A stretch of 64,000 bases of DNA from Patescibacteria group bacterium. Lineage in GTDB: Bacteria; Patescibacteriota; Minisyncoccia; Phycocordibacterales; Phycocordibacteraceae. The notes under the pieces were generated by a model. The model was not told the origin of the DNA, ran no database searches, and worked only from the letters and a program-made list of their open reading frames with translations. Each line of letters starts with the position of its first letter. Position 1 is the stretch's first letter. The stretch lies in the NCBI GenBank assembly GCA_038064695.1, contig JBBTSO010000004.1:114165-178164 (forward strand), given 5' to 3'. Of this stretch, positions 1 to 15,191 are shown one piece after another. The translations under genes and the position numbers were made by a program.

Positions 1-2064
1 TGAGGTGGTGAGGATAGTGTAGAGCGTGTACTGGCGTGACAATTTTGCTTCCGCGTCACTGCCTTGAAGAATTGGTTTTGATTCCTCCAAAATTTTGTCA
101 GCGACTTCACCCCACACGTAGTGATAGGTCTTTTCTGCGGCGAGGTAGAGTTGATACTTTTCAAACTCGCTCGTAATGTCAGCAGTTTGTGTGACGAGGC
201 CATCCAGTATTTCCTGGTCGCGCTTTGTTAGTGCTGGCTGTGTAGAGAGATCAACCCCCTCGGCATTTTCAAGAGCGAAGCGGGTAATGTTCCAGAGCTT
301 GTTAGCAAAGTGTTTGTATCCTTTTACTTTTTGCTCGTCAAAGTTAATGTCGTTTCCAATGGCCACTCCTACCAAAAGTCCCATACGCACGGCGTCAGCG
401 CCGTATTTTTCAATGAGGTCGAGCGGGTCAATGCCGTTGCCGAGCGACTTGCTAAACTTTCTTCCTGACTTGTCGCGCACCAGTCCATGAATCATGACGG
501 TTTTAAAAGGCACTTGGCCAAGGTGGAAAGCGCTCATCAAAATCATACGTGACACCCACAAGGGAAGAATTTCATAGGCAGGGGACATAAAGGCCGTGGG
601 ATGGAAGGTTTTTAGGTCTTTTGTTTTTTCAGGCCAACCCAACGTTGAAAACGTCCAGAGTGCAGACGAAAACCACGTGTCCAACACGTCAGGATCCTGG
701 TTCCAGTCCGCTCCAGGGGATGCAACCTGCACTTTTATCTCGTCACCTTTGTACCAAACAGGAATGCGGTGCCCAAACCAAATTTGGCGAGAAATGCACC
801 AATCGTGGAGATTTTTAATCCAGTTGAAGTATGTTTTTCTGAATCGTTCTTGCGGCATTGAAACTGCACCACTTTCTACTGCGGCAAACATAACCTCTTT
901 CAGGGTGACAGTGGATCCGCTCTCAATCCCTGGAATTTCAGAGTGGGGGATGGTAAATGGTTTATCAACTGCTACAAACCATTGTTCAAGTATTTGAGGC
1001 TCTATGGTCGCTCCCGTTCTTTCTGAAGTGGCGATGTTGTGAACGTACTGTTCATCAATTTTTACCACCAGACCTTTTGCGGCAAGTTTTTCAACGATTT
1101 TTTCGCGCGCTTCAAGAATTTTCATCCCCGCAAATTCTCCGGCAACAGGAAGCAATTTTCCGTATGTATCAATAATCTGTTCTTTGTCTAAGTGATGGCG
1201 CTCCGCAATTTCAAAGTCCACGACTGAGTGCCAGGGAGTAATGGTCATCGCACCAGTGCCTATCTCGGGGTCAGACGCTTCGTCTTTTATTACCGTTGCC
1301 GTGATGGGGCCGTTGATCCACTCCAACTCAATTTGTTGTCCGTGAGAAAACTCTGCGTACCGGGGGTCGGTAGGGTGTACCACAACGTACTTGTCGCCGA
1401 ACTTTGTTTCAGGTCGGGCGGTGCCGATGACAAATGGTCCGTATTGAAAATAGTAAAATTTTGCTTTTTCTTCTTGGTAGACAATTTCATCGTCTGAAAT
1501 GGTGGTTTGTCCTTTGGGATCCCAATTCACAATGCGATGTCCTCGGTAAATGAGCCCCGCTTCATACATTTTTACAAACGCTGTAAAGACCGCGCGGTTT
1601 CGTGTGTCGTCCATCGTGTAGGCGTAGCGCGACCAATCTAAGGATGCACCCATTTTTTTCACCTGATTTAAGATGGTGTTCTCGCTTGCCTTTGCGAATT
1701 CGGATACTCGTAAAACGAGTTCTTCGCGACCAAGGTCGTGACGCGATTTACCTTCTGTTTTTTGAATATCTTTCTCAACGCGTGCCTGTGTGGCAATAGC
1801 AGCGCTGTCGGTACCGGGGATCCAGAGCGTTTTTTTTCCGCGCATGCGTTGGTAGCGTACGACGGCGTCTTGAAGTGAATCTTCGTACGCGTGGCCCATG
1901 TGAAGAATACCGGTGACGTTCGGCGGGGGAAGCACTACGGTGTAGGGCTCAGTTCGTTCACCAGGTAATCTGTCCGGGTTAAAGTACCCACTCTCTTCCC
2001 AGAGTGTGTATATCCGATCTTCGGTCTCGTTAGGGTTGTACGGTTTTAAAAATTTAAGATCCAT
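1..2064 (-). CDS. valS: Valine--tRNA ligase (class I aaRS), 5'-truncated at window edge (start codon at 2064, runs off position 1)
   Basis: Own translation of the minus strand from the ATG at 2062-2064: MDLKFLKPYNPNETEDRIYTLWEE..PPPNVTGILHMGHA (HIGH-type motif) and ..KFSKSLGN (KMSKS motif). Long editing-domain insertion typical of ValRS. Not in the ORF track because no stop lies inside the window. Confidence 0.9.
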   Translation of the reverse strand, partial: MDLKFLKPYNPNETEDRIYTLWEESGYFNPDRLPGERTEPYTVVLPPPNVTGILHMGHAYEDSLQDAVVRYQRMRGKKTLWIPGTDSAAIATQARVEKDIQKTEGKSRHDLGREELVLRVSEFAKASENTILNQVKKMGASLDWSRYAYTMDDTRNRAVFTAFVKMYEAGLIYRGHRIVNWDPKGQTTISDDEIVYQEEKAKFYYFQYGPFVIGTARPETKFGDKYVVVHPTDPRYAEFSHGQQIELEWINGPITATVIKDEASDPEIGTGAMTITPWHSVVDFEIAERHHLDKEQIIDTYGKLLPVAGEFAGMKILEAREKIVEKLAAKGLVVKIDEQYVHNIATSERTGATIEPQILEQWFVAVDKPFTIPHSEIPGIESGSTVTLKEVMFAAVESGAVSMPQERFRKTYFNWIKNLHDWCISRQIWFGHRIPVWYKGDEIKVQVASPGADWNQDPDVLDTWFSSALWTFSTLGWPEKTKDLKTFHPTAFMSPAYEILPLWVSRMILMSAFHLGQVPFKTVMIHGLVRDKSGRKFSKSLGNGIDPLDLIEKYGADAVRMGLLVGVAIGNDINFDEQKVKGYKHFANKLWNITRFALENAEGVDLSTQPALTKRDQEILDGLVTQTADITSEFEKYQLYLAAEKTYHYVWGEVADKILEESKPILQGSDAEAKLSRQYTLYTILTTS

Positions 2065-2127
2065 AGCAAAAAAGTATCAATTCATCATAACACTTATGGC
2101 TTTTTCTAAAAACTCGTGACCGTTGCG

Positions 2128-2155
2128 TTGATTATGAGAGGTGGCGGAGTATACT
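2128..2155 (+). promoter_or_regulatory. Sigma70-like promoter candidate TTGATT-16-TATACT upstream of the 2208 ORF
   Basis: Hexamers read directly from the sequence. Spacing and distance to the start codon are plausible. Confidence 0.3.
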
Positions 2156-2207
2156 GGGAAAGTGTCCGCCCTCAGGACGGGCTTCTCTTACTTCCTAAAA
2201 AACATCT

Positions 2208-2582
2208 ATGATTCATTCAATACGTGCTTTGGGAGTGACCGCTCTTTTCGCGCTCCTTATGTTTGTTCTCTTTGCTTCACCTACGTTTGCAAAGGGTGTA
2301 GTGGGCGAAACCTTTAGCTCGGCAACGCCAGGAACCGTTGGAGGTTTCATTTCAGGTGGCATTTATGGCAATACGTCTAATCCTTCTGGGAACGGAAGCG
2401 GAGTACTCCCTTCGTGGGCTCCGGGACCATGGGTGTGTGACTATAATCCAGGATGTGATGGGCCAACTAACCCCAGAGGATCTATGGGTGACTTTCTTGC
2501 CCCACTTGCCTCAAACGGATCTGCATCTCCTGATTTTGCCAACGGGAATGATCAGGACATAGACTTCTCACTTCACCACTAG
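2208..2582 (+). CDS. Small secreted Gly/Asn/Pro-rich protein of unknown function
   Basis: N-terminal signal peptide (MIHSIRALGVTALFALLMFVLFASPTFA), two Cys residues, followed by an intrinsic terminator. Confidence 0.5.
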   Translation: MIHSIRALGVTALFALLMFVLFASPTFAKGVVGETFSSATPGTVGGFISGGIYGNTSNPSGNGSGVLPSWAPGPWVCDYNPGCDGPTNPRGSMGDFLAPLASNGSASPDFANGNDQDIDFSLHH

Positions 2583-2601
2583 AGTTTCTTTAGTGGAACG
2601 C

Positions 2602-2630
2602 AAAACCCCGCGTATGCGGGGTTTTTGTTT
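2602..2630. terminator. Rho-independent terminator (AAAACCCCGCG-TAT-GCGGGGTTTTT)
   Basis: GC stem flanked by an A-tract and a T-tract, so potentially bidirectional. Confidence 0.6.
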
Positions 2631-2675
2631 GGACGACTTTCTAAAATAAAAGACGATTTTTCCTACAGCACTTTT

Positions 2676-2747
2676 GTCCTTTATAAAGGACAAAATTTTA
2701 AGTTTGTTTTTCTTCACATTCTGACAAAGTTGTCCTTTATAAAAGAC
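2676..2747. promoter_or_regulatory. Two copies of a 16-bp palindrome (GTCCTTTATAAAGGAC at 2676-2691; GTCCTTTATAAAAGAC at 2732-2747) in the AT-rich leader of the giant surface-protein gene
   Basis: Perfect palindrome read directly from the sequence. The first copy extends to a 24-bp palindrome TTTTGTCCTTTATAAAGGACAAAA. The second copy, 56 bp downstream, has one mismatch. Sits 140-210 bp upstream of the ATG at 2886. Confidence 0.45.
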
Positions 2748-2885
2748 ATTTTAATTTTACCTTTTAAAATATGGATTTTCTCTAGAAAAAACTATTGCTT
2801 TTCTGTAACAATCGTGGTACTTTCCGCATTAGAAATGCACCGTCGTCGGAGCTTTCATTACTTAACTACAACTTAATACAAACTC

Positions 2886-5800
2886 ATGAATTCAACAGGT
2901 TTCTATGGAGTCTCAAAGTGGCACAAAGCCCTTTCCGCTTCATTGACCGCGTTCGCGCTTGTTCTCTCAAGTGTGGCGCCTTTACTCGCGTTCCCGCAAG
3001 TTGCACATGCCGTGGCTGATCCGAGTTCGTTCTACGAAGTAACCGGGTCTATAGATTCCATTATCGGACAGACACTCAATATTTCAGGGACTGCAAAAGG
3101 TGATCCACAGAAAGGCGCAGACGGTACTCAACATATGGCAGTCGACTGGGATGAAGATCAAGATGGTGATCCAACCACAGGTTTAAGCCAATGGGGGATT
3201 GATGGTTTGACCTTCACACCAGTGTTCAGTGACTGTTATGACCACAGTACATGTTTTTTAGATAGTCACTGGACTGCTTCACACTTATATAGTGCAGGTG
3301 GTTCGTATACGGTGAGCGTCATTGTTTACCACGGCAATACACCAGGAGAAGATGGTGACGCACTCTCGACTATCACGCTTGATGTCGAGATTCCTTCAAG
3401 TATTGGCGGTCTTATAGTCCAAAAAGTATTGGTTAATGATAACGGCGGAACAGTCGCAACATCTTCTTTTTCATTCCAAATTCCGGGGGTAAATGCTGGT
3501 AATCCTATTTTCTTTGAAGAAGACGGTTCAAACGAGTTTGTGCTCGAGGCCGGCTCTTATTCGGTGACGGAAGTTTCTACCCCTGGATATGGAGTTACCT
3601 ACAGTGCAGGTTGTACGGCGGGAGTTTCTGCAGGAGCAACGACGACGTGTACTATCACCAACAACGACCAGCCAGGTACGTTGATTGTGAAAAAAACGCT
3701 CACAAAAGATAATGGAAGCACTGCTAACTACGAAGATTTCGCGTTCCAAATGACCGGTGGCGCAACAACGACGTTTAATGTGAGTGGTGAAAATAGTATT
3801 TCAGTTGATGCGGGCACGTACTCGGTGGTAGAAGTTCAGGGTACCGAGCCTCTCTCTGGGTACACCACGTCGTACGACAACTGTTCAAACATATCAGTTG
3901 CAAACGGCGAAACTGAAATCTGTACAATCACAAACAACGACCTTCCTGCAAGCATTAAAATCTTTAAGGAAATTACTAATATCGAGGGACGAGGTCTAAA
4001 AACTGATCCTTCAGAATTTAGTTATTTCGTCGATCTTGAGCAGGTAATGCACGACGTTGCCGAGTTCTTTAACTTTAAGAGCACACCCTATGTCGTTACT
4101 GAAGAGGGAGCTGATGGATACAATGTTTCATTTGGCGGAAACTGTGCTTCTGACGGGTCACTCTCGGTGGCACTTGGTGGTTCATACACTTGTACAATCA
4201 CAAACACTCAAAAGGAACCCGGTGTATTGCATGTCATTAAAGTTGTTCAAAACGATAACGCTGAAGGTTTTGAAGGTACAGCCGTATCGGGCGATTTTAA
4301 CCTCAGTGTTTCAGGAGGAAACCCTGTTCCAGCATCATTTGCAGGATCAGCAGAAGGTGTTGATGTGGTCATTGATGCGGGTGCAAGTTACACGGTATCG
4401 GAAGATAGCTTTGCGGGATACCACCAGGTGTCTATGTCTGATGATTGTGAGGGGGTTATGCCTGAAGGAGGAGAGCGCACCTGTACGATCGTAAACAACG
4501 ACAATGTACCAGAGCAGGCGTACCTTACGGTAATGAAAACCATTACCAATGACAACGGTGGGCTAGTTGAAGACCAGGACGCGTGGACACTTACTGCTAC
4601 GAATAGCGAATCAGTAGTCACTCCCTTGTCTCATGGCTCTGCGGTGCTTGTTGATCCTCAGACGTATACGATTGGTGAAACCGGCGGCCCTGACGGGTAC
4701 GAACAAACTTCAGTTACGTGCTCGGTTGATGGGGGTAGCGAAGTAGCAGGAAATTCAGTTGTTGTGGAGGCTGGACACAGTTACGTTTGTACGATTACGA
4801 ACGACGACGTCGCCCCTTCATTGACGGTGGTTAAAGCACTTGATATTCAGTACGGTGGTACTGCTTCGGAATCTGATTGGACAGTTGGAGCTTCTGGTCC
4901 ATCAGTCATTTCAGGCGCAGGCAGCGTATCAAGCGGCGGCACCTTCCAAGCTGGGACTTATACGCTCTCTGAATCTGGCGGACCAGAGTCTGGTTACACC
5001 GCTGGCGAATGGTCTTGTAACAACGAGGTAGCTGTTGATGAAAATAATCAGATCACTCTTGCTCTTGGTGAAGAAACTACTTGTACGATCACAAATTACG
5101 ACCTTCCAGGAACACTCTATGTCATTAAAAATGTCATTAACGACAACGGCGGTGAAGCAGATCCTTCAGACTTCACTATGTATGTTGATGGAACTGACGT
5201 TTCAGATGAGTCGTTCCCAGGAACTGACGAGGAGCCAGGGTATTTGGTTACGTTGGATGCAGGAGCATACAGCGTTTCTGAAGATGGTCCAAGCGGGTAC
5301 GGCATGACCGCTTCTGAAGAATGTTCAGGTGAAATTGCAAACGGTGAAACAAAAGTGTGTACATTGACTAACGACGACGGGAAAGCAACTCTCACAATTG
5401 CAAAATACACTGAAGGCGCTGACGGATCATTCACGATTTCTGTGACGGGCCAGGAAGACATAACTCTTGCCACGGAACAGGGATTTGCTTCAGCATCGCT
5501 CGCGCTTGATGCTGGAACGTATGATGTTACTGAACTTGTTCCAACAGGATGGACACTTTCATCTTCGTACTGTGAGTACGACAATGAAGAGGAGGTTGGT
5601 GAACCAGCACAAAACGGAGAAACAGTTACTCTTGGTGTTGGTGCTGATGTTACCTGTTCGTTCTACAACTACGCAACCGGTGCGGACCTCTCCATTGAAA
5701 AATCAGTTGATGATGCAACGCCTGACGCAGATCAAACATTGCAGTTCACATTGACGGTTACAAACTCCGGTCCTGCCACTGCCAACAACGTGTCAGTACT

Positions 5801-6497
5801 TGATGCGCTACCTTCTGGTTTGACGTACGTTTCTGACGACAGCGAAGGTGAGTACTCAACCACTACGGGCGCGTGGACGGTAGGCTCGCTCCTTGACGGA
5901 GAGTCAGCGACACTAGTCATAACGGCTACCGTGAGTGCTTCAGCCGGGCAAACGGTGGTAAACACTGCTTCCGTATCGTTTGAAGACGAAGGTGTTTCAG
6001 ATTACGTAGAAGAAAATAACGATGACGAAATTTCAGTTACTGTAAACACTCCATCAGGTGGCGGAGGTGGTGGATCAACTCCTCCTCCACCAGTTCTTGG
6101 TGGCGGTATTACGGGCCTCGGTGGCGGCTCAGTACTCGGTGCTTCAACCGTGGGTCAAGTCTTGGGTGAAAGCTGTGGTCTGTTTATGGACCAGTACCTA
6201 CGACGTGGCAATGCTAAAAACCGCGCTGACCAAGTAACGAAACTCCAGGAATTCTTGGTCAAACACGGATACGGAACCTTTACTCCAACAGGATTCTTTG
6301 GTCCATTGACCGAAGGTGCAGTTAAAGCATTCCAAGCTGAGTACGCTCAAAACGTGCTCGCGCCGTGGGGACTTTCAGCTCCAACGGGGCTTGCATACCT
6401 AACGACGCTCCGCCAGTTGAACCTCATTGAATGTCCTGAACTTTCACTCACCATCCCCGAGTTGGTAGAGTGGAGCAGAAACCCTGCAGTTCAGTAA
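2886..6497 (+). CDS. Giant (1203 aa) cell-surface protein: signal peptide, about 9 tandem ~100-aa Ig-like repeats each ending C-T-I-T-N-(N)-D, a DUF11-type repeat, a poly-Gly/Pro linker and a C-terminal peptidoglycan-binding domain
   Basis: Repeats show the recurring pattern PGxL.V.K....DNGG .. AG.YxVxE .. GY .. C .. NGE..CTITNND. DUF11-like segment LQFTLTVTNSGPATANNVSVLDALPSGLTYVSDDS. Linker PSGGGGGGSTPPPPVLGGGITGLGGGS. PG_binding_1-like C-terminus (LQEFLVKHGYGTFTPTGFFGPLTEGAVKAFQ). Confidence 0.85.
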   Translation: MNSTGFYGVSKWHKALSASLTAFALVLSSVAPLLAFPQVAHAVADPSSFYEVTGSIDSIIGQTLNISGTAKGDPQKGADGTQHMAVDWDEDQDGDPTTGLSQWGIDGLTFTPVFSDCYDHSTCFLDSHWTASHLYSAGGSYTVSVIVYHGNTPGEDGDALSTITLDVEIPSSIGGLIVQKVLVNDNGGTVATSSFSFQIPGVNAGNPIFFEEDGSNEFVLEAGSYSVTEVSTPGYGVTYSAGCTAGVSAGATTTCTITNNDQPGTLIVKKTLTKDNGSTANYEDFAFQMTGGATTTFNVSGENSISVDAGTYSVVEVQGTEPLSGYTTSYDNCSNISVANGETEICTITNNDLPASIKIFKEITNIEGRGLKTDPSEFSYFVDLEQVMHDVAEFFNFKSTPYVVTEEGADGYNVSFGGNCASDGSLSVALGGSYTCTITNTQKEPGVLHVIKVVQNDNAEGFEGTAVSGDFNLSVSGGNPVPASFAGSAEGVDVVIDAGASYTVSEDSFAGYHQVSMSDDCEGVMPEGGERTCTIVNNDNVPEQAYLTVMKTITNDNGGLVEDQDAWTLTATNSESVVTPLSHGSAVLVDPQTYTIGETGGPDGYEQTSVTCSVDGGSEVAGNSVVVEAGHSYVCTITNDDVAPSLTVVKALDIQYGGTASESDWTVGASGPSVISGAGSVSSGGTFQAGTYTLSESGGPESGYTAGEWSCNNEVAVDENNQITLALGEETTCTITNYDLPGTLYVIKNVINDNGGEADPSDFTMYVDGTDVSDESFPGTDEEPGYLVTLDAGAYSVSEDGPSGYGMTASEECSGEIANGETKVCTLTNDDGKATLTIAKYTEGADGSFTISVTGQEDITLATEQGFASASLALDAGTYDVTELVPTGWTLSSSYCEYDNEEEVGEPAQNGETVTLGVGADVTCSFYNYATGADLSIEKSVDDATPDADQTLQFTLTVTNSGPATANNVSVLDALPSGLTYVSDDSEGEYSTTTGAWTVGSLLDGESATLVITATVSASAGQTVVNTASVSFEDEGVSDYVEENNDDEISVTVNTPSGGGGGGSTPPPPVLGGGITGLGGGSVLGASTVGQVLGESCGLFMDQYLRRGNAKNRADQVTKLQEFLVKHGYGTFTPTGFFGPLTEGAVKAFQAEYAQNVLAPWGLSAPTGLAYLTTLRQLNLIECPELSLTIPELVEWSRNPAVQ

Positions 6498-6511
6498 ATA
6501 TAAAAGAAGCT

Positions 6512-6545
6512 AAAACACCGCCTACATGGGCGGTGTTTTGTTTTG
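6512..6545. terminator. Rho-independent bidirectional terminator (AAAACACCGCC-TACATG-GGCGGTGTTTTGTTTTG)
   Basis: Stem nearly identical to the terminator at 7890-7923. Confidence 0.7.
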
Positions 6546-6572
6546 TGCAGTTGATGTAGACAACTAGAGTAT

Positions 6573-7436
6573 TTGGACTACACTAAGAGTATTAGTAATC
6601 ATATATTCTATTTCTCTATGTTCTTAAAAACACTCGCTTCTGTCTTTGTCTTCATATTTGTATTTTCTGTCAGCACGGGGGCGCAAGCATCGCACTCGTG
6701 GGGAAATTATCACTGGGCGCGCACCGTAAATCCGTTCACGCTTAAACTTGGAGACAACGTTACCTCCGCGTGGGACGCGTATCTCGCTGAAGCATCAAGT
6801 GATTGGAGCGCGTCATCGGTACTTGATACCACCGTCGTCACTGGTTTAACTAATGCAAAAAATTGTAAAGCGGTTACGGGGCGCGTTGAAGTCTGCAACT
6901 CAAAGTATGGGAATAATGGGTGGCTTGGCATTGCTTCAATTTCAATTAACAGCGCAAAGCACATTACCAAGGGGGTCGCAAAAATGAATGACACCTACTT
7001 CAACACTGCTTCCTACAACACGCCCGCGTGGCGGCACCTCGTGATGTGTCAGGAAATTGCTCACGTGTTTGGGCTTGATCACCAGGATGAAACATTTGAC
7101 AACGCAAACGTTGGGTCATGTATGGACTACACGAACGACCCTGATGGGGGAGCGGGAGGAGCAAGTGCTTCTGATCCATCAAACGAACACCCTAACGCGC
7201 ACGACTTTGCGCAACTTGAAACTATCTACGCGCACCTTGATTCGGGAACTACCATTGGCCAGACATTAATAGGAAAAGAGTTTGGGAAACTTGTTGCTTC
7301 TCTCAAGGGGGTAGAGGCGCACGAAGAGTACGGTGTTCCAGTTGGTTTTGAGCCGAGTGGCCGCGCCAACACCTTTAAGAAAGATTTTGAGGACGGATCG
7401 TCCGAAATCACGCACGTCTTCTGGCTTCCTGAGTAA
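6573..7436 (+). CDS. Secreted protein with a variant metzincin-like zinc-binding motif (QEIAHVFGLDH = xExxHxxGxxH, first His replaced by Gln)
   Basis: N-terminal signal/TM segment, then CQEIAHVFGLDHQDE aligned by eye to matrixin HExxHxxGxxH. Downstream SCMDYT could supply a Met-turn-like residue. The family assignment is tentative. Confidence 0.45.
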   Translation: MDYTKSISNHIFYFSMFLKTLASVFVFIFVFSVSTGAQASHSWGNYHWARTVNPFTLKLGDNVTSAWDAYLAEASSDWSASSVLDTTVVTGLTNAKNCKAVTGRVEVCNSKYGNNGWLGIASISINSAKHITKGVAKMNDTYFNTASYNTPAWRHLVMCQEIAHVFGLDHQDETFDNANVGSCMDYTNDPDGGAGGASASDPSNEHPNAHDFAQLETIYAHLDSGTTIGQTLIGKEFGKLVASLKGVEAHEEYGVPVGFEPSGRANTFKKDFEDGSSEITHVFWLPE

Positions 7437-7503
7437 CTACCACTTTACAAAAACACCTTCCATGCGGAGGGTGATTCCAAGGTATTGAATCATAACGGAA
7501 TAG

Positions 7504-7532
7504 TTGACAAAAAAATATCTATATATTATAAT
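7504..7532 (+). promoter_or_regulatory. Perfect consensus sigma70 promoter TTGACA-17-TATAAT
   Basis: TTGACA at 7504-7509, exactly 17-nt spacer, TATAAT at 7527-7532, about 35 bp upstream of the ORF starting at 7568. Confidence 0.65.
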
Positions 7533-7567
7533 CTTTTTTATTAACCCTTAAACAAGTTTTAAAAAAT

Positions 7568-7870
7568 ATGTCTAAAGATGTTTTTCCTCGCATAGTGGCA
7601 GGTGTGGTGGGTGGTGGTGGTTTATACTACTCTGCTGATAAGGTAGACCTTACTCGTGATTTTCAATTTCGGTTGGGCGCGTATAGAGATTCTGTAGTGA
7701 ATGGTGACATACGCCTCCCTGAAGACGATGCCCTCCAATCCTTACAATCTATGAACGATAGGTTGAATGTAGCAGAAAATGAGGTTTTACTCTACAGTGC
7801 TATGGTACTATTTTCTCTTGTTGCAATCGCATATGCAGTCGGTGTTGGGCGACAACGATCTTTCTCCTAA
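7568..7870 (+). CDS. Small (100 aa) protein with C-terminal transmembrane helix, unknown function
   Basis: ORF preceded by a consensus promoter and followed by a terminator. C-terminal hydrophobic helix LLYSAMVLFSLVAIAYAVGV. Confidence 0.5.
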   Translation: MSKDVFPRIVAGVVGGGGLYYSADKVDLTRDFQFRLGAYRDSVVNGDIRLPEDDALQSLQSMNDRLNVAENEVLLYSAMVLFSLVAIAYAVGVGRQRSFS

Positions 7871-7889
7871 AAAGAACTTTCTCTAAGCC

Positions 7890-7923
7890 AAAACACCGCC
7901 CATGTGGGCGGTGTTTTTGTTTG
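7890..7923. terminator. Rho-independent bidirectional terminator (AAAACACCGCC-CATGTG-GGCGGTGTTTTTGTTTG)
   Basis: Near-identical stem to the terminator at 6512. Member of a recurrent terminator design in this window. Confidence 0.7.
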
Positions 7924-7931
7924 ATAAAAAC

Positions 7932-7960
7932 TTGAAATTATGACGTAAATCTTGTATAGT
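7932..7960 (+). promoter_or_regulatory. Sigma70-like promoter TTGAAA-17-TATAGT upstream of the pilus ATPase gene
   Basis: Hexamers and 17-nt spacer read directly. About 50 bp upstream of the ATG at 8010. Confidence 0.5.
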
Positions 7961-8009
7961 GCTGATGAGAAATAGGAGGGTTTTTCCCCTACGTTGAGCC
8001 ATCAAAATC

Positions 8010-9230
8010 ATGATTGATACCACAGTTGAAAAGGAACTTGAGAAGGGCGCCGCTGCCTCCATCATCAACCTGGTTGATTGTCTTATTCGTCAGGCGCACT
8101 CAATGCGTGCTTCAGACATCCACATTGACCCAACCCAAAAAGAGGTCCGCATTCGCTTTCGCATTGACGGAGCGTTGCAGGAAATGTATGTCCTTCCCAA
8201 AACTATTCATCGTGAAGTGGTGTCGCGCGTAAAAATTATCGCAGGCCTGCGTATTGATGAACACAACGCCACCCAAGATGGTCGCTGTCGGCAAATTGTT
8301 GGCGACAACGAACACGACTGTGTAGACATTCGCATTTCTATTGCCCCTACGTACCATGGAGAAAACGTGGTGATGCGCCTCCTTTCAGACCGTGAGCAAC
8401 ATTTTTCACTAGACGCGCTCGGCTTTAGTGAAGGCGATCAGAAAAAAATAATGAAGGCGATTAAAAAGCCAACCGGAATGATTTTGGCAACCGGCCCCAC
8501 GGGGTCAGGAAAAACCACCACTCTCTACACACTGGTTAAAATGTTGAATGCCAAAGATATTTCTATCGTTACCTTGGAAGACCCCATTGAGTACGCCGTT
8601 GAAGGTATTGAACAAATTCAGGTGAACCCGTTTGTGGGGCTTACCTTTGCCAGCGGGCTTCGCTCACTGTTACGCCAAGATCCCGACATTATTATGGTGG
8701 GAGAAATTCGCGACCTGGAAACCGCCTCTATTGCCGTAAACACGGCGTTGACCGGCCACCTCCTACTTTCAACACTCCACACCAACGACGCGGCGACCAC
8801 GCTGCCACGACTTATGGAAATGCGCATTGAGCCGTACCTCGTTGCCTCCACGGTGTCTATTGCCATTGGCCAGCGCCTCGTTCGCCGACTGTGCGACAAG
8901 TGCAAAACACCGCATGAGTTTACCGAAGCAGAGCAGGTAGCGCTTTCAGATATTGTGACGGGGAGCACGATTCCCGTAGGGGCAAAGTTATTTAAAAGTG
9001 TTGGTTGTGAACACTGCAACAATACCGGCTTCAGAGGCCGTATTGGGGTTAACGAGGTGTTGGTGTCCGACGGGGAAGTGCGTGACGCAATTTTAAAGAA
9101 ATCGTCAGCAAAAGATATCCGCGACATTGCTATTCAAAACGGAATGACCACGATGCTTGAAGACGGATTCCAAAAAGTACAAAAAGGACTCACCACCGTA
9201 ACCGAGGTGCTCCGTGTCGTACATGAATAA
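8010..9230 (+). CDS. pilB: Type IV pilus / type II secretion assembly ATPase (GspE/PilB family), short form without the N-terminal domains
   Basis: Walker A GPTGSGKTT, Asp/His boxes, and a C-terminal tetracysteine motif (CDKC .. CEHC) that is typical of PilB/GspE rather than PilT. Confidence 0.9.
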   Translation: MIDTTVEKELEKGAAASIINLVDCLIRQAHSMRASDIHIDPTQKEVRIRFRIDGALQEMYVLPKTIHREVVSRVKIIAGLRIDEHNATQDGRCRQIVGDNEHDCVDIRISIAPTYHGENVVMRLLSDREQHFSLDALGFSEGDQKKIMKAIKKPTGMILATGPTGSGKTTTLYTLVKMLNAKDISIVTLEDPIEYAVEGIEQIQVNPFVGLTFASGLRSLLRQDPDIIMVGEIRDLETASIAVNTALTGHLLLSTLHTNDAATTLPRLMEMRIEPYLVASTVSIAIGQRLVRRLCDKCKTPHEFTEAEQVALSDIVTGSTIPVGAKLFKSVGCEHCNNTGFRGRIGVNEVLVSDGEVRDAILKKSSAKDIRDIAIQNGMTTMLEDGFQKVQKGLTTVTEVLRVVHE

Positions 9231-10452
9231 AATACTCTCCACCATTAAAAACGCGCGCGTTGCCTTGAACGAGAATGCAAAAAAAGCAGGTGACTCACTT
9301 CGCGCGTTTAAACTTCCTGCACTTTCTAAGAAAGAAAAAACCGTTTCCCCAAAAAAAACTAACAAACCACAAGAACGTGAAGGTGAGAAAAAGCCATTCA
9401 TCATTGGCGGTATTTCTATTCGCGAGCAGAGTCTCTTTGCGCGCCGCTTGGCCTTTCTCATAAACTCAGGAGTGCCGGTGTTGGAGGCGATGCACATCAT
9501 CATTGACCAGACCTCGTCGCGCACCTTAAAAGAAGTATTGACCTACGTTGCGAAGGACATTTCCCACGGCCAGTTTTTGCATACGAGCTTAAAAAAGTTT
9601 CCAAGCGTCTTTAATGGGTTTATGGTGAACATCATTCGTGTCGGGGAAGTGTCCGGTATTCTTTCCAACAACCTCCTCTATCTCTCCGAAGAACTCCGCA
9701 AGCGCGACGTGTTAAAGAAAAAGGTAATTGGCGCCTTGGTGTACCCTGCGTTCATTACGGTCGCGACCCTAGGGGTTACCGGCATGCTCACCGCTTTTAT
9801 TTTCCCTAAAATAATGCCGATTTTTGCCTCGCTCAACGTGAAATTGCCTTTGACGACCATTATTTTGATTGCGGTTTCTGACTACTTGCGCGTGTGGGGT
9901 TTGTGGACCATTTTAGGCATCATTGTGTTTGTTGTCATTGTTATCGTTTTACGTAACACGGTACCCGCGTTCCGAGAGCTTTTGGAAAAAATAATTATCC
10001 GCATTCCCTTGGTGGGGCCAATGGTGCGTACGTACCACGTCGCGAACTTTTCTCGCACATTGGGGATTATGTTAAAGAGCGGCGCGATGGTCACGGACGC
10101 TATTGAAATTACGGGTGACACGTTGGAATTTAAAATTTACCACGACCAGTGTGACAAAATTGTTGATCGCGTGAAGCGCGGAGAGCAAATCGCCACACTA
10201 CTTAAAGAGAAAAAGATTTTGTTTCCCATTATGTTGACGCATATGGTTGCCATAGGGGAGAGGACGGGTAAGTTGTCGGAGACACTCATTTATCTTGGTG
10301 GGTTGTATGAAGAAGAGTTGGACGATCAGTCTAAAAATCTCTCATCCGCTATTGAACCTATTTTGATGGCGGTGATGGGTATTTTGGTTGGCTTTGTCGC
10401 GGTGTCGGTCATCACTCCTATTTACGGCATTACGCAATCTCTTTCCCGCTAA
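9214..10452 (+). CDS. pilC: Type IV pilus inner-membrane platform protein (GspF/PilC family)
   Basis: Two repeated GspF-type domains with three TM segments. Overlaps pilB by 17 nt, an operon-like arrangement. Confidence 0.85.
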   Translation: MSYMNKILSTIKNARVALNENAKKAGDSLRAFKLPALSKKEKTVSPKKTNKPQEREGEKKPFIIGGISIREQSLFARRLAFLINSGVPVLEAMHIIIDQTSSRTLKEVLTYVAKDISHGQFLHTSLKKFPSVFNGFMVNIIRVGEVSGILSNNLLYLSEELRKRDVLKKKVIGALVYPAFITVATLGVTGMLTAFIFPKIMPIFASLNVKLPLTTIILIAVSDYLRVWGLWTILGIIVFVVIVIVLRNTVPAFRELLEKIIIRIPLVGPMVRTYHVANFSRTLGIMLKSGAMVTDAIEITGDTLEFKIYHDQCDKIVDRVKRGEQIATLLKEKKILFPIMLTHMVAIGERTGKLSETLIYLGGLYEEELDDQSKNLSSAIEPILMAVMGILVGFVAVSVITPIYGITQSLSR

Positions 10453-10453
10453 T

Positions 10454-10888
10454 ATGCAACGAGGATTCTCATTATTTGAAGTTTTAATTGTTATCGGCAT
10501 ACTTGGTGTTGTAGCACTTTTCACCGTGGGTATTGATACGCGCTCCATTTCACGAAGCACTGCTTCCGCTGAAAGCACGGTGCTGTTACAAATGCTCATT
10601 CACGCACGCAGTCGGGCTATGAATAACGAGTATCAAATGCCTCACGGTGTGTACGTTGATGCAAACAATTTTGTACTATTTCGTGGTAATTCATATGACC
10701 CGTTGGCAGCAGGAAATGAGCCCACCCCTCGCTCAACACAGGTTTCAATTTCTATTCCACCCGCCGTTCCTTTTGAGGTCGTTTTTACCCAGCTTTCAGG
10801 CACTACGTCGGCTCAGACGGTAAAGCTTGCATCGGGGGTTGATTCGGTAGATATTGATATTAAAGAGACAGGCGCCATTGCTTGGTAA
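10454..10888 (+). CDS. Prepilin-type N-terminal cleavage/methylation domain protein (pseudopilin)
   Basis: MQRGFSLFEVLIVIGILGVVALF gives a class III signal G|FSLFE with Glu at +5. Start moved to the ATG at 10454, 1 nt after the pilC stop. The ORF-track start at 10388 overlaps pilC. Confidence 0.7.
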   Translation: MQRGFSLFEVLIVIGILGVVALFTVGIDTRSISRSTASAESTVLLQMLIHARSRAMNNEYQMPHGVYVDANNFVLFRGNSYDPLAAGNEPTPRSTQVSISIPPAVPFEVVFTQLSGTTSAQTVKLASGVDSVDIDIKETGAIAW

Positions 10889-10891
10889 CGT

Positions 10892-12430
10892 ATGAAAAAA
10901 CACCCTATCCGCGGCTTCAGTATCGTAGAAATTCTCCTCGCGCTCGCTATCGTGTCGGTAGCCATTACGGGTGCCACGGTACTGGCTTTTGGAAGCCAAG
11001 ACGCGGTGCGCGACGCGGGACTTTCGCAAGAAGCGCTCTATAAGGTGGAGCAGGCACTTGAAGAAAAATTTGCTGCTTTGAAATTTGATTGGAACCAGCT
11101 CGCCGCGAGTGCTATTGTTGCCGACAGCATTTACGACAAGCAGGTTATTGTTACCGACATTTCAGAGTGCGTGAAGCAGGTGGAAAGCCGCGCGGACTGG
11201 AGTGTGCCCCAGCGTTCACAAGCGTCGTCACTCATCACCCTTTTCTCTTCTACCTCAACCATCGCCGCGTTAGGGGGTAACTGCAATACCACTCCTACTT
11301 CGAATGATTGGGATTTTCCCAGTTCATACGGCTTCGCTGACTTTGAATCATCGAGTGGTATTCACGGTATGGACATTGATGTAACCTATCGAGGATCTCA
11401 ACGTATTGGATTTCTTGCGGGATCAATTAGTGATGACAACAAAGAAGATTTTGTTATTCTCGATCTTTCGGTCGCCAATACCCCCGCAGTTATTTCTGGT
11501 TCAGAACTAAACCTAGGAGAGTTTATTGAGGCGGGGGGTGGCGCAAACGGGCGAGTAAATGCATTAGTTGCTGCAGACAACTATGTGTATGCACTTTCAC
11601 ACACAAAGAAGAATTCACCTTCAGAAATGATTTTGACGGTTATTGATACTTCGATACTCACTGTTCCGACCGTGGTCGCTACATCAACTTTACCGGGCAA
11701 TGCCAGTGCATATGTCGATGAAGGCGCAATAGCTTATTATGACGGATATGTATACGTTGGAACATGGGATACTGCTGGTCCAGAGTTCCATGTTTTTGAC
11801 GTTTCGCTCCCTACGAATCCGATTGAAGTTGAGTCAGTTGAACTGACTCACTCAATCAAGGAACTCGTGGTGCGCAACAATTATGTATACGCTGCCACTA
11901 CTGCGGAAAACGCTGAATTAATGGTGTTTGATGTATCAAATCCTCTCAGTGTTCCAGACCCAATTTCAGCTGGTACTGTTTACGACGTAAAAAGTACTGA
12001 TGGAACGACCGCGAGTGGTCGTGACGGTACTTCCGTGTACGCTTCTGGCAACAGGGTATATCTAGGGCGCGTTGGCTCAGGGATTAATGAAAGTGATGAA
12101 CATGAATTCTTTATTCTTGACGTTTCAAACCCCGTAAGTATTTCCCTCCTCGGTTCGATGGAACTCGACTTGAAGACTACTGAAGAAGTGGTTGGTTTGA
12201 ACATTGTCGGACCTCTTGCGTTTATTGTTTCAACTGACACAAATGTGGGTTTCCAGGTATGGAATATTACTGATCCAGACAATATAGTGTCACCGTCATC
12301 GTGTAACAATTTATTTAATTATCCCGAAAAGCCAACAGCATTAGACTTTGTAGATAACTTCGGGTTTGTTTCAAATGATGCAAACAAGGCGCTAAGAGTA
12401 ATTTATGATGATCCATCCTGCACGCTATAA
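10892..12430 (+). CDS. Large (512 aa) prepilin-like protein carrying an LVIVD-repeat beta-propeller domain; candidate pilus tip adhesin / minor pilin
   Basis: N-terminus MKKHPIRGFSIVEILLALAIV (G|FSIVE). Five repeats of the LVIVD type: FVILDLSVANTP, FHVFDVSLPTNP, LMVFDVSNPLSVP, FFILDVSNPVSIS, FQVWNITDPDN, interleaved with NYVYA-type strands. Confidence 0.7.
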   Translation: MKKHPIRGFSIVEILLALAIVSVAITGATVLAFGSQDAVRDAGLSQEALYKVEQALEEKFAALKFDWNQLAASAIVADSIYDKQVIVTDISECVKQVESRADWSVPQRSQASSLITLFSSTSTIAALGGNCNTTPTSNDWDFPSSYGFADFESSSGIHGMDIDVTYRGSQRIGFLAGSISDDNKEDFVILDLSVANTPAVISGSELNLGEFIEAGGGANGRVNALVAADNYVYALSHTKKNSPSEMILTVIDTSILTVPTVVATSTLPGNASAYVDEGAIAYYDGYVYVGTWDTAGPEFHVFDVSLPTNPIEVESVELTHSIKELVVRNNYVYAATTAENAELMVFDVSNPLSVPDPISAGTVYDVKSTDGTTASGRDGTSVYASGNRVYLGRVGSGINESDEHEFFILDVSNPVSISLLGSMELDLKTTEEVVGLNIVGPLAFIVSTDTNVGFQVWNITDPDNIVSPSSCNNLFNYPEKPTALDFVDNFGFVSNDANKALRVIYDDPSCTL

Positions 12431-12884
12431 CCCTACTAGGCGAGGCGTTACGCTGTTCGAGACGCTCATCTACATTTTTATTTTCTCACTCTTGATGACG
12501 GGGGCGCTCGCCACGTCGTTTTGGACGGCGGAAACAAGTGCGCGCACCGCGCGTTTAGCGCTGATTGAGTCTGAAGCAGATTTTGTGTTGCGTAAAATTG
12601 ACTGGGCAGCAACGGGCTCCACTATCACAGAACCAGCGCCAGACGACACTGGGGATGTTTTAACTTTCGAGCGAGATGGTGAAGAATATTCTTTTATGCT
12701 CACCGGCAATACCTTGATGTTTCTTTTGAATGGTTTTGAAGCACCACTCACCACTAACAATGTGTCGGTGAGTTCTTTTTCCGCAACGCACGTGGCGGAA
12801 GCCGGGGTTGTACCCGCCGCCGCTTCAACCACAATTATTATGAACGGAAAAACGTACGGACCAAAAATTCACTATGTACGCTAA
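12405..12884 (+). CDS. Prepilin-type pseudopilin (minor pilin)
   Basis: RRGVTLFETLIYIFIFSLLMTG gives G|VTLFE with Glu at +5, with a hydrophobic helix downstream. Confidence 0.6.
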   Translation: MMIHPARYNPTRRGVTLFETLIYIFIFSLLMTGALATSFWTAETSARTARLALIESEADFVLRKIDWAATGSTITEPAPDDTGDVLTFERDGEEYSFMLTGNTLMFLLNGFEAPLTTNNVSVSSFSATHVAEAGVVPAAASTTIIMNGKTYGPKIHYVR

Positions 12885-13344
12885 CCCCCTTAACAAAAAA
12901 ATTATCATATATGGTAATTTTTTTCATATAGGGAAAAGTGAAAGGGGATACATCGCACTTGTGTCTGTACTCATTATTTCGTTGGTGCTTTTAACACTTG
13001 CGGTGTCGGTTAGTTTGACTGGGTTTTATGCACGTTCAAATATTTTGGGGAGCGAAATTAAAGAGCAGAGCATGGCGCTTGCAGAAAGTTGCGTCAGTAA
13101 AGCAGTGGCCGATGTCGCGATAGGGAACCCTACGACGGGCGTGGTTTCGTTTAGCGAAAATCCCTACACGGGAGATGCGTACGAGTGCACCATTCTTTCC
13201 ATTACATCTGACTCACCAAACACAGGAGAAACCACCATAGAAACTCAAGGAATTTTCTACAATTCGTACACCAACCTCGTCGTAACTATTGACAGTAATA
13301 ACCAAAATGTGTTGAAATGGCGAGAGGTTCCAACGCTCCCGTAA
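12874..13344 (+). CDS. PilX/GspK-like pilus-associated protein (hydrophobic N-terminal segment without the +5 Glu); start uncertain
   Basis: ERGYIALVSVLIISLVLLTLAV resembles PilX/GspK N-termini. The N-terminal region carries the 27-bp repeat also found inside tsaD. Confidence 0.4.
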   Translation: MYANPLNKKIIIYGNFFHIGKSERGYIALVSVLIISLVLLTLAVSVSLTGFYARSNILGSEIKEQSMALAESCVSKAVADVAIGNPTTGVVSFSENPYTGDAYECTILSITSDSPNTGETTIETQGIFYNSYTNLVVTIDSNNQNVLKWREVPTLP

Positions 13345-13444
13345 CTATTGATTTTGAGTGCGTTTTGTGGTAGTTTTTAAGCAGGGTACTTCCAAAAATA
13401 CCCTTTAATTAGAACTTATTTTTGGAGATTAGTCTCTTAAAAAA

Positions 13445-13900
13445 ATGAATAAAACTCTTAAATCAGCACGTGGTTTCACATTGATTGAAATCCTCGTCGT
13501 GATTGGTATTATTGCAATCCTCGCCGCAGTGGTGTTGATTGCTATTAACCCCGCTCGCCAGTTCTCACAGGCAAATAACAGTCAGCGTACATCAAACGTT
13601 AACGCTATTCTTAACGCTGTTGGTCAAAAACTTGCGGATGGCAAAGGTGCCTTCAATACAGGCGGTTGTCCAGCTCTTCCAACAACTCTATCAGAAATCA
13701 TTGTTGGTGGTACTGTATCAGGTAACCAAGTTGACCTAGCTTGTTTGACCCCAACCTACCTACCCTCATTCCCATTTGATCCGGCAACAGGAAACACTGC
13801 TTCAACAACAGGATACTTCATCATTGTCGACGGAAACAGTCGAGTAACGGTGAGTGCTCCTGATGCTGAGCTAAGTCAGACCATCTCAGTCACTCGTTAG
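13445..13900 (+). CDS. pilA: Type IV major pilin (PilA-like)
   Basis: MNKTLKSARGFTLIEILVVIGIIAILAAVVLIAINPA: canonical G|FTLIE class III signal, 151 aa, with its own leader and terminator. Confidence 0.8.
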   Translation: MNKTLKSARGFTLIEILVVIGIIAILAAVVLIAINPARQFSQANNSQRTSNVNAILNAVGQKLADGKGAFNTGGCPALPTTLSEIIVGGTVSGNQVDLACLTPTYLPSFPFDPATGNTASTTGYFIIVDGNSRVTVSAPDAELSQTISVTR

Positions 13901-14141: not shown

Positions 14142-15191
14142 ATGTTTCCAACATTCAAAAAATGGTTCATTCCAAGCTCGGAAAACGACTACCTGCCGTA
14201 CTCGGTACGCGTGGTTCCGTTTGTGCTTTTGAGCGCCTTTGTCGGATTTGTGTTCCTCACTTCAGCGTCGGTCCAGAAACTTTTAACTGACCAAGACAGC
14301 TTTCTCGCCGCGGTTGTTGCAAGCGTGCTCGTTGACCTCGCTAATGGCGACCGCGCGGGTGAAGGACTTCACGGGCTTTCAGTGAACCCAACCTTGGTTG
14401 AGGCGGCACAGGCAAAGGCAGATGATATGGCGCGCGCGGGATACTTTTCACACAACTCACCTGATGGGAAAACGCCGTGGTACTGGTTTGGAGAAGCGGG
14501 GTACCAATTTTCATACGCTGGTGAAAATCTCGCTGTCTTTTTTGGTGACTCAGCGGACGTTGAGCGTGCGTGGATGAATTCGCCTTCTCACCGCGCGAAC
14601 ATTTTGAGTTCAAATTTTACTGAAATTGGCATTGCTACTGCTGAAGGATATTATCAAGGTCAGCCAACGGTGTTTGTGGTTCAAATGTTTGGCGCGCCCG
14701 CAACGAAAAAACCACTCGCTACCGTTCAGACGAGTCCAGTATTGGGTGAAAGCGCGGAAACCATTGAAACTGGTTCTGTCGGAGGCGAAACTATTGAAGT
14801 AGTAACTGAAAACGATCCCGTTTCTACTCCTGTCGCCGTCCTGCCAAGCGAGCCTACTGTCATTCACGAAGATGATATGTTCATCGCGGTTAAAAATACC
14901 GACGTCGTGGAAGCGCCCAGCGACTATGCCGTGGAGCGTCAGACCAACATTGCAGAGCGCGTTGCCGCTTCACCACACACTACGCTGACGTATGTCTATG
15001 GTTTGATTGGAACTATTCTCGCACTTGCGGTAGTGTTGTTTGTCTTTTTGGAATTTCACATACAAAAACCAACGCACGTCTTTTTAAGTCTTGCGCTCAT
15101 CCTCTTCATGGGATTGTTACTTTTCTTCACCGACCACCACGTGGCACTTGCTGAGTTGCAAGCATTGAGCTCACTCCTTCCTCACTCATAA
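14142..15191 (+). CDS. Membrane-anchored CAP/SCP (PR-1-like, YkwD-type) domain protein
   Basis: GYFSHNSPDGKTPWYWF .. GENLAV .. AWMNSPSHRANIL matches the CAP-domain signature. N- and C-terminal hydrophobic helices. Confidence 0.7.
   Translation: MFPTFKKWFIPSSENDYLPYSVRVVPFVLLSAFVGFVFLTSASVQKLLTDQDSFLAAVVASVLVDLANGDRAGEGLHGLSVNPTLVEAAQAKADDMARAGYFSHNSPDGKTPWYWFGEAGYQFSYAGENLAVFFGDSADVERAWMNSPSHRANILSSNFTEIGIATAEGYYQGQPTVFVVQMFGAPATKKPLATVQTSPVLGESAETIETGSVGGETIEVVTENDPVSTPVAVLPSEPTVIHEDDMFIAVKNTDVVEAPSDYAVERQTNIAERVAASPHTTLTYVYGLIGTILALAVVLFVFLEFHIQKPTHVFLSLALILFMGLLLFFTDHHVALAELQALSSLLPHS

Follow-up and report, generated by a model that had tools for sequence, protein, structure and literature searches.

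Fibrillar adhesins of Gram-positive bacteria, among them MSCRAMMs such as Staphylococcus aureus Cna, consist of a signal peptide, an N-terminal tip, a stalk of CnaB-type domains and a C-terminal wall anchor (PMC8286594). The Pfam family SpaA_2 (PF19403) was created as a stalk family of such proteins, and PG_binding_1 was included in the accompanying list of anchor models (Monzon et al. 2021, PMC8286594). In a structure-based survey SpaA_2 and SpaA_4 were described as predicted Lys/Glu/Asn isopeptide domains with an additional disulfide in 95.5% of the predicted SpaA_2 and 99.5% of the predicted SpaA_4 domains (Protein Sci 2025, PMC12617251). For SpaA_2 and SpaA_4 there are no experimental structures, and a DUF11 ('CLIPPER') domain has been solved with a Lys-Asn bond and a catalytic Asp (PMC12617251). 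In the accessible parts of the text and supplement of this survey, Actinomycetota, Acidobacteriota, Pseudomonadota and Chloroflexota are named as the main phyla, and Patescibacteria are not mentioned by that term. Knowledge of how ultrasmall Patescibacteria attach to hosts is incomplete. Cultivated Saccharibacteria are known to need type IV pili and 'multiple adhesins', but for the far larger groups of the Paceibacteria type knowledge is scarce. Extracellular proteins with peptidoglycan-binding (PGBD), Ig-like and PKD domains are among the most highly expressed genes of host-attached Paceibacteria (Kuroda et al. 2024, PMC10936435). Here we describe a gene on a stretch of 64,000 nucleotides from a Patescibacteria group bacterium (assembly GCA_038064695.1, contig JBBTSO010000004.1, positions 114,165 to 178,164), referred to in the following as the window. 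The gene, located at positions 2886-6497 and termed adhesin gene below, probably encodes a Sec-exported, wall-associated fibrillar adhesin-like protein of a Patescibacteria cell, itself probably of the Paceibacteria type.

All features of the locus are compiled in Table 1. The open reading frame (ORF) of 1203 amino acids (aa) proposed in a preliminary description of this DNA is real, and an identical protein is found at NCBI (MEK7613719.1, 'MAG: peptidoglycan-binding protein [Patescibacteria group bacterium]', where MAG stands for metagenome-assembled genome), encoded on a contig of 199,690 bp. For the mature product a mass of about 120 kDa and an isoelectric point of 4.05 were computed. The whole protein was scanned against Pfam-A, and each domain listed exceeded its curated cut-off: SpaA_2 in seven stretches (E 1.3e-59, 199.2 bits versus a cut-off of 25), SpaA_4 (PF24514) at aa 836-928 (54.1 bits versus 27.3), DUF11 (PF01345) at aa 934-1051 (E 3.5e-31, 108.3 bits versus 24.6) and PG_binding_1 (PF01471) at aa 1114-1153 (32.3 bits versus 23). 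An NCBIfam scan added TIGR01451, a DUF11-type repeat. The domain order given earlier, i.e. repeats, DUF11, Gly/Pro linker and a peptidoglycan-binding C-terminus, is essentially correct. The family names given for it (a prealbumin/CnaB-like stalk, DUF11, PG_binding_1) all pass the Pfam thresholds, and the linker is present at about aa 1053-1089. With the whole protein as query, a sequence search of the PDB gave no match and a search of genome contigs no related locus. Of the features of fibrillar adhesin-like proteins according to Monzon et al. 2021, signal peptide, tandem-repeat stalk and surface-anchoring domain are present. As to a terminal adhesive domain, the N-terminal tip gave no Pfam adhesive family and structural matches to generic Ig-like folds only; VWA, PA14 and comparable domains occur in relatives that have this anchor.

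In the stalk eight homologous repeats were found instead of the roughly nine Cys-pair repeats assumed before, the ninth pair, C117/C123, being located in the non-homologous N-terminal domain. Seven positions are invariant over the eight aligned repeats: a first-strand Lys (L-x-V-x-K), Tyr and Glu of a Y-x-V-x-E motif, two Gly, the second Cys, and an Asn four residues past this Cys. The Lys and the Glu had been overlooked in the preliminary description, and the motif C-x(7-8)-C-T-I-T-N-N-D, which it had taken for invariant, did not hold up: the spacing of the two Cys is actually 11-27, and what all eight repeats share around the second Cys is just C-[TS]-x-x-N (CSFYN in the last one). When a hidden Markov model of the repeat was run over 120 retrieved homologues, 1100 complete repeats were obtained in 119 proteins. 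The K-E-N triad is kept in all repeats of the window protein and in 1095 of these 1100 homologous repeats; the conservation of the three residues is far beyond chance. Exactly two Cys occur in 1072 of the 1100 repeats, spaced by 10 to 35 residues, and in all three repeats without the second Cys the first one is missing too. Judged by sequence, Lys, Glu and Asn in these positions make up the putative catalytic triad known from intramolecular isopeptide domains of the CnaB type. With a profile built from the eight repeats only weak matches were obtained in the PDB, all of them to CnaB domains of Gram-positive pili and adhesins (4bug/2xi9, RrgA 2ww8, T-antigens), which align through a G-x-Y-x-x-x-E...GY motif. 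Stabilization by a disulfide or by a metal or isopeptide bond had been considered earlier; the disulfide and the isopeptide bond are both predicted, whereas metal binding by the Cys pairs was rejected because the Cys are lost together and structure-based surveys place such pairs as disulfides.

The single DUF11/CLIPPER domain follows the stalk. Its K-D-N triad is kept in 51 of 60 homologous DUF11 domains, and the spacing of K939/D973/N1026 resembles that of K715/D748/N806 in the solved structure 9IFR; a search of the DUF11 region against PDB sequences gave no match to 9IFR.

In 24 of the 120 homologues the C-terminus can be aligned to residues 1090-1203, with C1097 and C1183 invariant and the tail PELVxWSxNP conserved. 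An AlphaFold2 (AF2) model of this anchor, calculated on the homologue alignment, reached a predicted local distance difference test (pLDDT) value of 87.4 and contains three main helices at 25-37, 51-68 and 83-93. In a Foldseek search of the PDB its top matches were all PG_binding_1 domains with a probability of 1.00. The best of them was the SleB N-domain (6tci, 73 residues) with a target-normalised template modelling (TM) score of 0.84, and further matches comprised Clostridioides difficile 5tv7, CtpB (4c2g), the phage endolysins 5nm7 and 7rum, SltB3, SleC and the Zn DD-peptidase 1lbu. A word-indexed homologue search with the 114-aa anchor returned only 6 matches; an exhaustive HMMER profile search yielded 18,812 cluster representatives when the limit was E<=1e-3 and 591 when it was E<=1e-30. 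Among the sequences collected, 96 proteins (174-1958 aa) have a complete module that lies no more than 12 residues from the C-terminus, and G/P/S/T-rich linkers lie upstream of the module in each of the 96. The other domains on 59 of these proteins, scanned with Pfam, are SpaA_2/4 (19), Big_9 and cadherin-like domains (12), DUF11 (12), VWA (10), Bact_surface_Ig-like (9), DUF642 (8) as well as PA14, CshA and CBM96. Species-representative genome contigs were searched with an alignment of seven anchor sequences. In these genomes the module is overwhelmingly found in Patescibacteria, with a Paceibacterota MAG as best match (73% identical), and according to record titles the groups concerned include Paceibacterota, Saccharibacteria, Zambryskibacteria, Kaiserbacteria, Gracilibacteria and others. 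The anchor is thus a general C-terminal module of Patescibacteria surface proteins, in the place that LPXTG holds in Firmicutes. The tether by a C-terminal PG_binding_1 domain with the stalk pointing outward, which had been suggested at the outset, agrees with the modelled fold and with the C-terminal position of the module on many fibrillar-adhesin-type proteins. In three relatives (P0008, P0011 and P0035) an extra low-complexity stretch extends beyond the module, ending in P0008 and P0035 in an amphipathic-looking tail (e.g. GGILKSIGNFFKKLF, GGFWSGIKSFFSNLFHH), which from its sequence may be an additional membrane-associating element.

At the other end of the protein, the signal peptide is the sole hydrophobic segment detected by a hydropathy scan. 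It is nearly identical in the orthologue P0002, although the first domain of P0002 differs. An extended signal peptide with the aromatic n-region W-[YF]-x-x-P-x-W-x-K, here F-Y-G-V-S-K-W-H-K, is common to the closest relatives (P0002, P0004, P0005, P0067, P0097, P0170, P0192, P0210, P0212 and P0225); it continues as ...L-T-I-x-A-L...P-Q-x-A-x-A and is kept even where the first mature domain differs. The tip domain carries weak PKD-like motifs (WDEDQDGD and SHLYSAGGSYTVSV), and Foldseek retrieved only generic Ig-like/E-set matches for it (TM score about 0.4). It recurs in five relatives (P0067, P0002, P0033, P0055 and P0078), always directly before the first stalk repeat. Compared with P0002, the identity is 94% in the anchor, 70% in DUF11, 61% in the stalk and 55% in the tip; P0002 has an additional N-terminal head domain of about 160 residues, and a VWA head is present on P0007. 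A conserved foot and a variable head are as expected if the C-terminus touches the cell's own wall and the N-terminus is directed outward.

From these data we propose the following arrangement. The signal peptide (aa 1-42) would be removed at the A-H-A site, and the 114-residue PG_binding_1 module, its fold taken from the model, would bind peptidoglycan of the cell itself in a non-covalent manner, with a C1097-C1183 disulfide as probable clamp. The Gly/Pro linker would span the wall. One DUF11/CLIPPER and eight SpaA_2/SpaA_4 domains would then form a rigid rod of several tens of nanometres, predicted to contain nine isopeptide locks (eight repeats and DUF11) and eight stalk disulfides. The residues for these bonds are present; each domain would be locked by a spontaneous Lys-Asn isopeptide bond with Glu, or Asp in DUF11, as catalyst, and in each SpaA repeat the disulfide would lie next to the isopeptide Asn, in agreement with the structure-based survey (PMC12617251). 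The rod would display the small, variable N-terminal beta-sandwich, which would be the likeliest site to touch host cells or surfaces. An adhesive role and its ligand are inferred from the protein's architecture and context only. The adhesin, the pilus genes of the window and a membrane protein of the CAP superfamily, encoded directly downstream of the adhesin gene in relatives, probably form one surface-attachment locus. At the locus of the relative P0033 (L002), two DsbA-like thioredoxins and DsbB are encoded on both sides of the adhesin-CAP pair (4508-5200, 8651-9430, 17036-17596); these genes are consistent with extracytoplasmic disulfide formation in such organisms.

Several observations weigh against this arrangement. 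The adhesin gene has its own terminator, so that co-expression with the pilus genes is not implied, and it appears to be a transcription unit of its own rather than a member of the pilus operon. The six-strand beta-sandwich of the tip was modelled with moderate confidence (AF2 pLDDT 70.5), and Pfam detected no adhesive family in the tip, the matches to PKD being sub-threshold only. In the anchor, the Pfam match to PG_binding_1 is limited to profile positions 2-41 of 57, a partial coverage due to the insertion in the module, and its Foldseek E-values are modest (7e-3) despite the probability of 1.00. Finally, within the 64-kb window, to which this result is limited, no Dsb or sortase genes were found with the DsbA and DsbB sequences of L002 and the TLxTC motif as queries; the lone TLxTC match falls on a spurious antisense ORF.

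Four other explanations were weighed. According to the first, which we consider unlikely, the protein is processed or covalently sorted: V-L-G would be the site for a dedicated protease or transpeptidase, possibly together with the CAP protein, and PG_binding_1 would serve for targeting or retention and be cleaved off, with the stalk shed or covalently attached. VLG stands directly before the first Cys in 96/96 single C-terminal modules and is doubled 4-13 residues upstream in 71 of them (consensus GG-x-VLGAST...G-Q-VLG-x-SC). Where proteins carry tandem (or internal) modules, it stands before just 7 of 100 and is therefore not part of the module fold; elsewhere in module proteins its background is 0.58 per 1000 aa. 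The V-x-G/A pattern agrees with the -3/-1 rule known for type I signal peptidases and would suggest a processing site. The same motif is found in the CAP protein of the window, which like its relatives has a short cytoplasmic N-terminus and one transmembrane helix, followed by the CAP domain and, after a variable linker, by two C-terminal transmembrane helices. The linkers of these proteins are enriched for [VI]LG (9 of 17, 0.48 expected) and V[LAK]G (15 of 17, 1.5 expected), values that none of the 20,000 shuffles used for the expectation reached. The entire window contains three copies of [VI]LG[AEQTVS][ST], two of them in the linker of the adhesin and one in that of the CAP protein.

The pairing of the two genes is likewise conserved in both search directions. 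A CAP gene lies downstream of an anchor-module gene on the same strand in 18 distinct genome loci, usually at a distance of 5-180 bp (among L002, L005-L013, L031, L032, L041, L043, L044, L046, L057, L082 and L086). In the reverse test, a module-bearing ORF ends just upstream of CAP in 39 of 66 independent metagenome loci (among L088-L167, each with 400 bp or more of sequence upstream). In the window, the adhesin and CAP genes enclose the type IV pilus cluster. The CAP protein itself matches Pfam with E 5.6e-18; its NCBIfam matches to YkwD (6e-31) and DalA (4.5e-13) are both below the cut-offs, and it is a member of neither family. Against processing, the candidate enzyme and the cleavage are hypothetical and deduced from sequence, V-L-G could just as well be a structural or interaction element, and the AF2 anchor model leaves the motif disordered. 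Furthermore, no protease or transpeptidase activity is established for the bacterial CAP superfamily. As a tentative proposal, held with low confidence, the linker, the doubled V-L-G, the Cys-clamped PG_binding_1 module with the tail PELVPWSxNP and the V-L-G-bearing CAP protein might constitute an undescribed Patescibacteria-wide system for the sorting, anchoring or release of large surface proteins. If so, this unit would correspond in function to the sortase/LPXTG or S-layer-homology systems, here physically coupled to a type IV pilus locus. In the searchable literature nothing was found on a phylum-wide anchor unit with a VLG motif and a CAP partner, and such a unit may be new.

Rather unlikely in our view is a non-adhesive structural fibre, i.e. 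an envelope coat or spacer serving in distance-keeping, wall protection or as a pilus scaffold instead of a ligand-specific adhesin. This would fit the tip, a plain Ig-like sandwich not assigned to an adhesive family, the wide distribution of the module and CAP pair across Patescibacteria lineages whatever the cargo, and the role of the bacterial CAP protein DalA as a peptidoglycan-binding envelope or divisome factor (PMC10470522). However, sister proteins with the same anchor bear the classical adhesive heads VWA, PA14, CBM96 and DUF642, and heads are swapped between close orthologues at a conserved anchor, as is typical of exposed binding tips.

An inverted orientation, in which PG_binding_1 binds host peptidoglycan and an uncleaved N-terminal hydrophobic segment keeps the protein on the symbiont, is quite improbable. 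The N-terminal h-region is long (about 22 residues), but a canonical A-x-A site follows it, the module is always C-terminal behind a linker of the wall-spanning Gly/Pro type with the adhesive domains in N-terminal position, and the anchor is the most conserved part of the protein, the N-terminus the most variable. Archaea lack bacterial murein. Participation of Paceibacteria PGBD proteins in host attachment was proposed by Kuroda et al., but the hosts in their work are methanogenic archaea (PMC10936435). The reading as a subunit of a sortase-assembled pilus or of the type IV pilus, for which the CnaB-type isopeptide domains typical of sortase pilins and the adjoining type IV pilus cluster might speak, is in effect refuted, since the motifs that define such subunits are absent: regular-expression and hydropathy scans detected no LPXTG-like signal, YPKN pilin motif or C-terminal transmembrane segment with charged tail in the protein, the prepilin motif G-F/M-T/S-L-x-E and an N_methyl match are missing, unlike in the neighbouring pilin genes, and the C-terminus is a folded peptidoglycan-binding domain. 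The protein is neither sortase-anchored nor a pilin, and an own-wall-anchored, fibrillar adhesin-like protein with an outward tip is the reading that we prefer.

Table 1. Features of the adhesin locus and its surroundings. Positions refer to the window, residues to the encoded protein.
Feature	Position	Strand	Residues and remarks
Promoter match, weak, sigma-70-like	2743..2770	+	AAGACA-16-TAAAAT, 9/12; consensus match only
Adhesin-like gene	2886..6497	+	single ATG-initiated ORF, 1203 aa
Signal peptide	2886..3011	+	aa 1-42; n-region K11/K14, h-region aa 15-37, A-H-A cleavage motif; read from sequence
N-terminal tip domain	3012..3398	+	aa 43-171; six-strand beta-sandwich (model) with C117/C123 loop
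Stalk of eight tandem CnaB-like repeats	3399..5678	+	aa 172-931; SpaA_2 x7, SpaA_4 x1
Repeat 1	starts 3399		triad K180/E229/N259; Cys 243/255, 11 residues apart
Repeat 2	starts 3672		triad K270/E316/N350; Cys 333/346, 12 residues apart
Repeat 3	starts 3945		triad K361/E406/N440; Cys 420/436, 15 residues apart
Repeat 4	starts 4221		triad K452/E506/N537; Cys 521/533, 11 residues apart
Repeat 5	starts 4521		triad K551/E598/N639; Cys 612/635, 22 residues apart
Repeat 6	starts 4815		triad K650/E696/N737; Cys 711/733, 21 residues apart
Repeat 7	starts 5106		triad K748/E799/N829; Cys 813/825, 11 residues apart
Repeat 8	starts 5385		triad K840/E883/N928; Cys 896/924, 27 residues apart
DUF11/CLIPPER domain	5679..6041	+	aa 932-1052; CnaA-type triad K939/D973/N1026
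Gly/Pro-rich linker	6042..6152	+	aa 1053-1089 (SGGGGGGSTPPPPVLGGGITGLGGGSVLGASTV); read from sequence
Duplicated V-L-G motif	6132..6176	+	VLGAST aa 1083-1088, VLGESC aa 1092-1097; candidate processing/recognition site
PG_binding_1-type anchor module	6153..6494	+	aa 1090-1203; Cys pair C1097/C1183, tail PELVxWSxNP
Strong intrinsic-terminator-like hairpin	6511..6540	+	13 bp past gene end (6497)
Gene without family assignment	6573-7436		287 aa
Gene without family assignment	7568-7870		100 aa
Type IV pilus cluster	8010..13900	+	starts 1.5 kb downstream of adhesin
T2SSE ATPase	8010-9230	+	pilus cluster
PilC	9214-10452	+	pilus cluster
Pilins, four with N_methyl motif	10388-10888, 10892-12430, 12405-12884, 13445-13900	+	pilus cluster
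ORF without family assignment	12874-13344	+	pilus cluster
CAP (YkwD/DalA-like) membrane protein	14142..15191	+	three transmembrane segments; SPVLGESA in extracellular linker, ~14730-14750

The location of the adhesin gene 1.5 kb upstream of a type IV pilus cluster, already pointed out in the preliminary description, was confirmed by the start of the pilus ATPase gene. This linkage is conserved and recurs in five further loci: the adhesin gene precedes the pilus cluster in L001, L085 and L087, and the order is pilus cluster, adhesin, CAP in L086 and L046. At L002 and most other loci no pilus cluster lies within 10 kb of the adhesin gene. One of the pilin genes (10892-12430) encodes an unusually large type IV pilin-like protein of 512 aa with N_methyl and LVIVD/beta-propeller/choice-of-anchor-B-like matches; L001, L085 and L086 have conserved it in their pilus clusters and, from its sequence, it may be an adhesin at the pilus tip.

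Upstream of the adhesin gene, valS (valyl-tRNA synthetase; 1-2076, minus strand) is oriented divergently and runs off the left end of the window, an arrangement also present in L001 and L085. Between the two genes lies an ORF of 124 aa (2208-2582, plus strand) for a Gly/Ser/Asn-rich product with a signal peptide and no family match, and a terminator-like hairpin at 2672-2695 separates this ORF from the adhesin gene. On the downstream side, near-identical terminator hairpins at 6511-6540 and 7890-7917 (AAAACACCGCC...GGCGGTGTTTT) flank the genes for the 287-aa and 100-aa proteins. L001 has a single hairpin and neither of these genes between adhesin and pilus ATPase, so that the 1.3-kb segment 6546-7889 has the appearance of an insertion accompanied by duplication of the terminator. 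Inside this segment, at 7504-7532, there is a perfect sigma-70 consensus (TTGACA-17-TATAAT). The 287-aa secreted protein contains the motif QEIAHVFGLDH, which is metzincin-like (HExxHxxGxxH) but has Gln for the first His; for a metalloprotease this is no more than a hint, with a sub-threshold match to Reprolysin_2 (E 0.26) as sole support and no match in the PDB. A homologue of 63% identity is encoded upstream of the adhesin in L087. Between window positions 1-10455 and L001 the amino acid identity amounts to 52% for ValS, 95% for the pilus ATPase and 92% for PilC, and within the adhesin to 94% for the anchor and 55% for the tip. This uneven conservation could reflect strong purifying selection or recombination and recent horizontal transfer of an adhesin-pilus island; as the pilus genes are only 82.6% identical at the DNA level, strong purifying selection is an adequate alternative to recent transfer.

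Overall, the protein presented here is a concrete and well-delimited candidate for attachment, with a predicted cross-linked rod, a variable tip and a defined wall anchor. Since the anchor module is common to many surface proteins of the phylum, it could serve to inventory their surface proteomes. The CAP partnership and the V-L-G motif provide a testable lead on how cells with a Gram-positive-like envelope display large proteins, and the isopeptide-plus-disulfide repeats may interest protein engineers seeking very stable modules.

When compared with known systems, every domain family, the isopeptide-plus-disulfide design of SpaA_2/4, PG_binding_1 as an adhesin anchor and the protein name at NCBI are already known. 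The window protein shares the order of signal peptide, N-terminal tip, CnaB-type stalk and C-terminal wall anchor with the MSCRAMMs; it differs from them in a non-covalent PG_binding_1 anchor instead of LPXTG and sortase, in a tip with no match to a known adhesive family and in its origin from an ultrasmall Patescibacteria cell. With respect to the SpaA_2/SpaA_4 isopeptide domains of the survey (PMC12617251), the same first-strand Lys, Y-x-x-x-E Glu, last-strand Asn and Cys pair are found in all eight repeats, and nothing essential differs. The Acinetobacter silvestris protein B9T28_05395 (9IFR) also combines a DUF11 Lys-Asp-Asn stalk with a non-covalent peptidoglycan-binding anchor (PMC12617251). 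It belongs to a Gram-negative organism and has many CLIPPER repeats and an OmpA-like anchor, whereas the window protein has one DUF11 domain, eight CnaB-like repeats and PG_binding_1. The extracellular proteins of Kuroda et al. come from the same phylum, show the same mixture of peptidoglycan-binding and Ig-like/PKD-like domains and led to a host-attachment proposal, a likeness in domain content; they were called extracellular enzymes, and the PGBD itself was suggested to bind the host (PMC10936435). With DalA, a CAP lipoprotein that binds peptidoglycan non-covalently (PMC10470522), and with YkwD the partner in the window has the CAP domain in common, but it is a membrane protein with three transmembrane segments, not a lipoprotein. 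Finally, the anchor shares its three-helix fold with the PG_binding_1 domains of cell-wall enzymes (SleB, CtpB, endolysins) and is distinguished from these by its place on a non-enzymatic fibre, an insertion that separates helices 2 and 3, a flanking pair of invariant Cys, conservation of its C-terminal tail and the upstream VLG.

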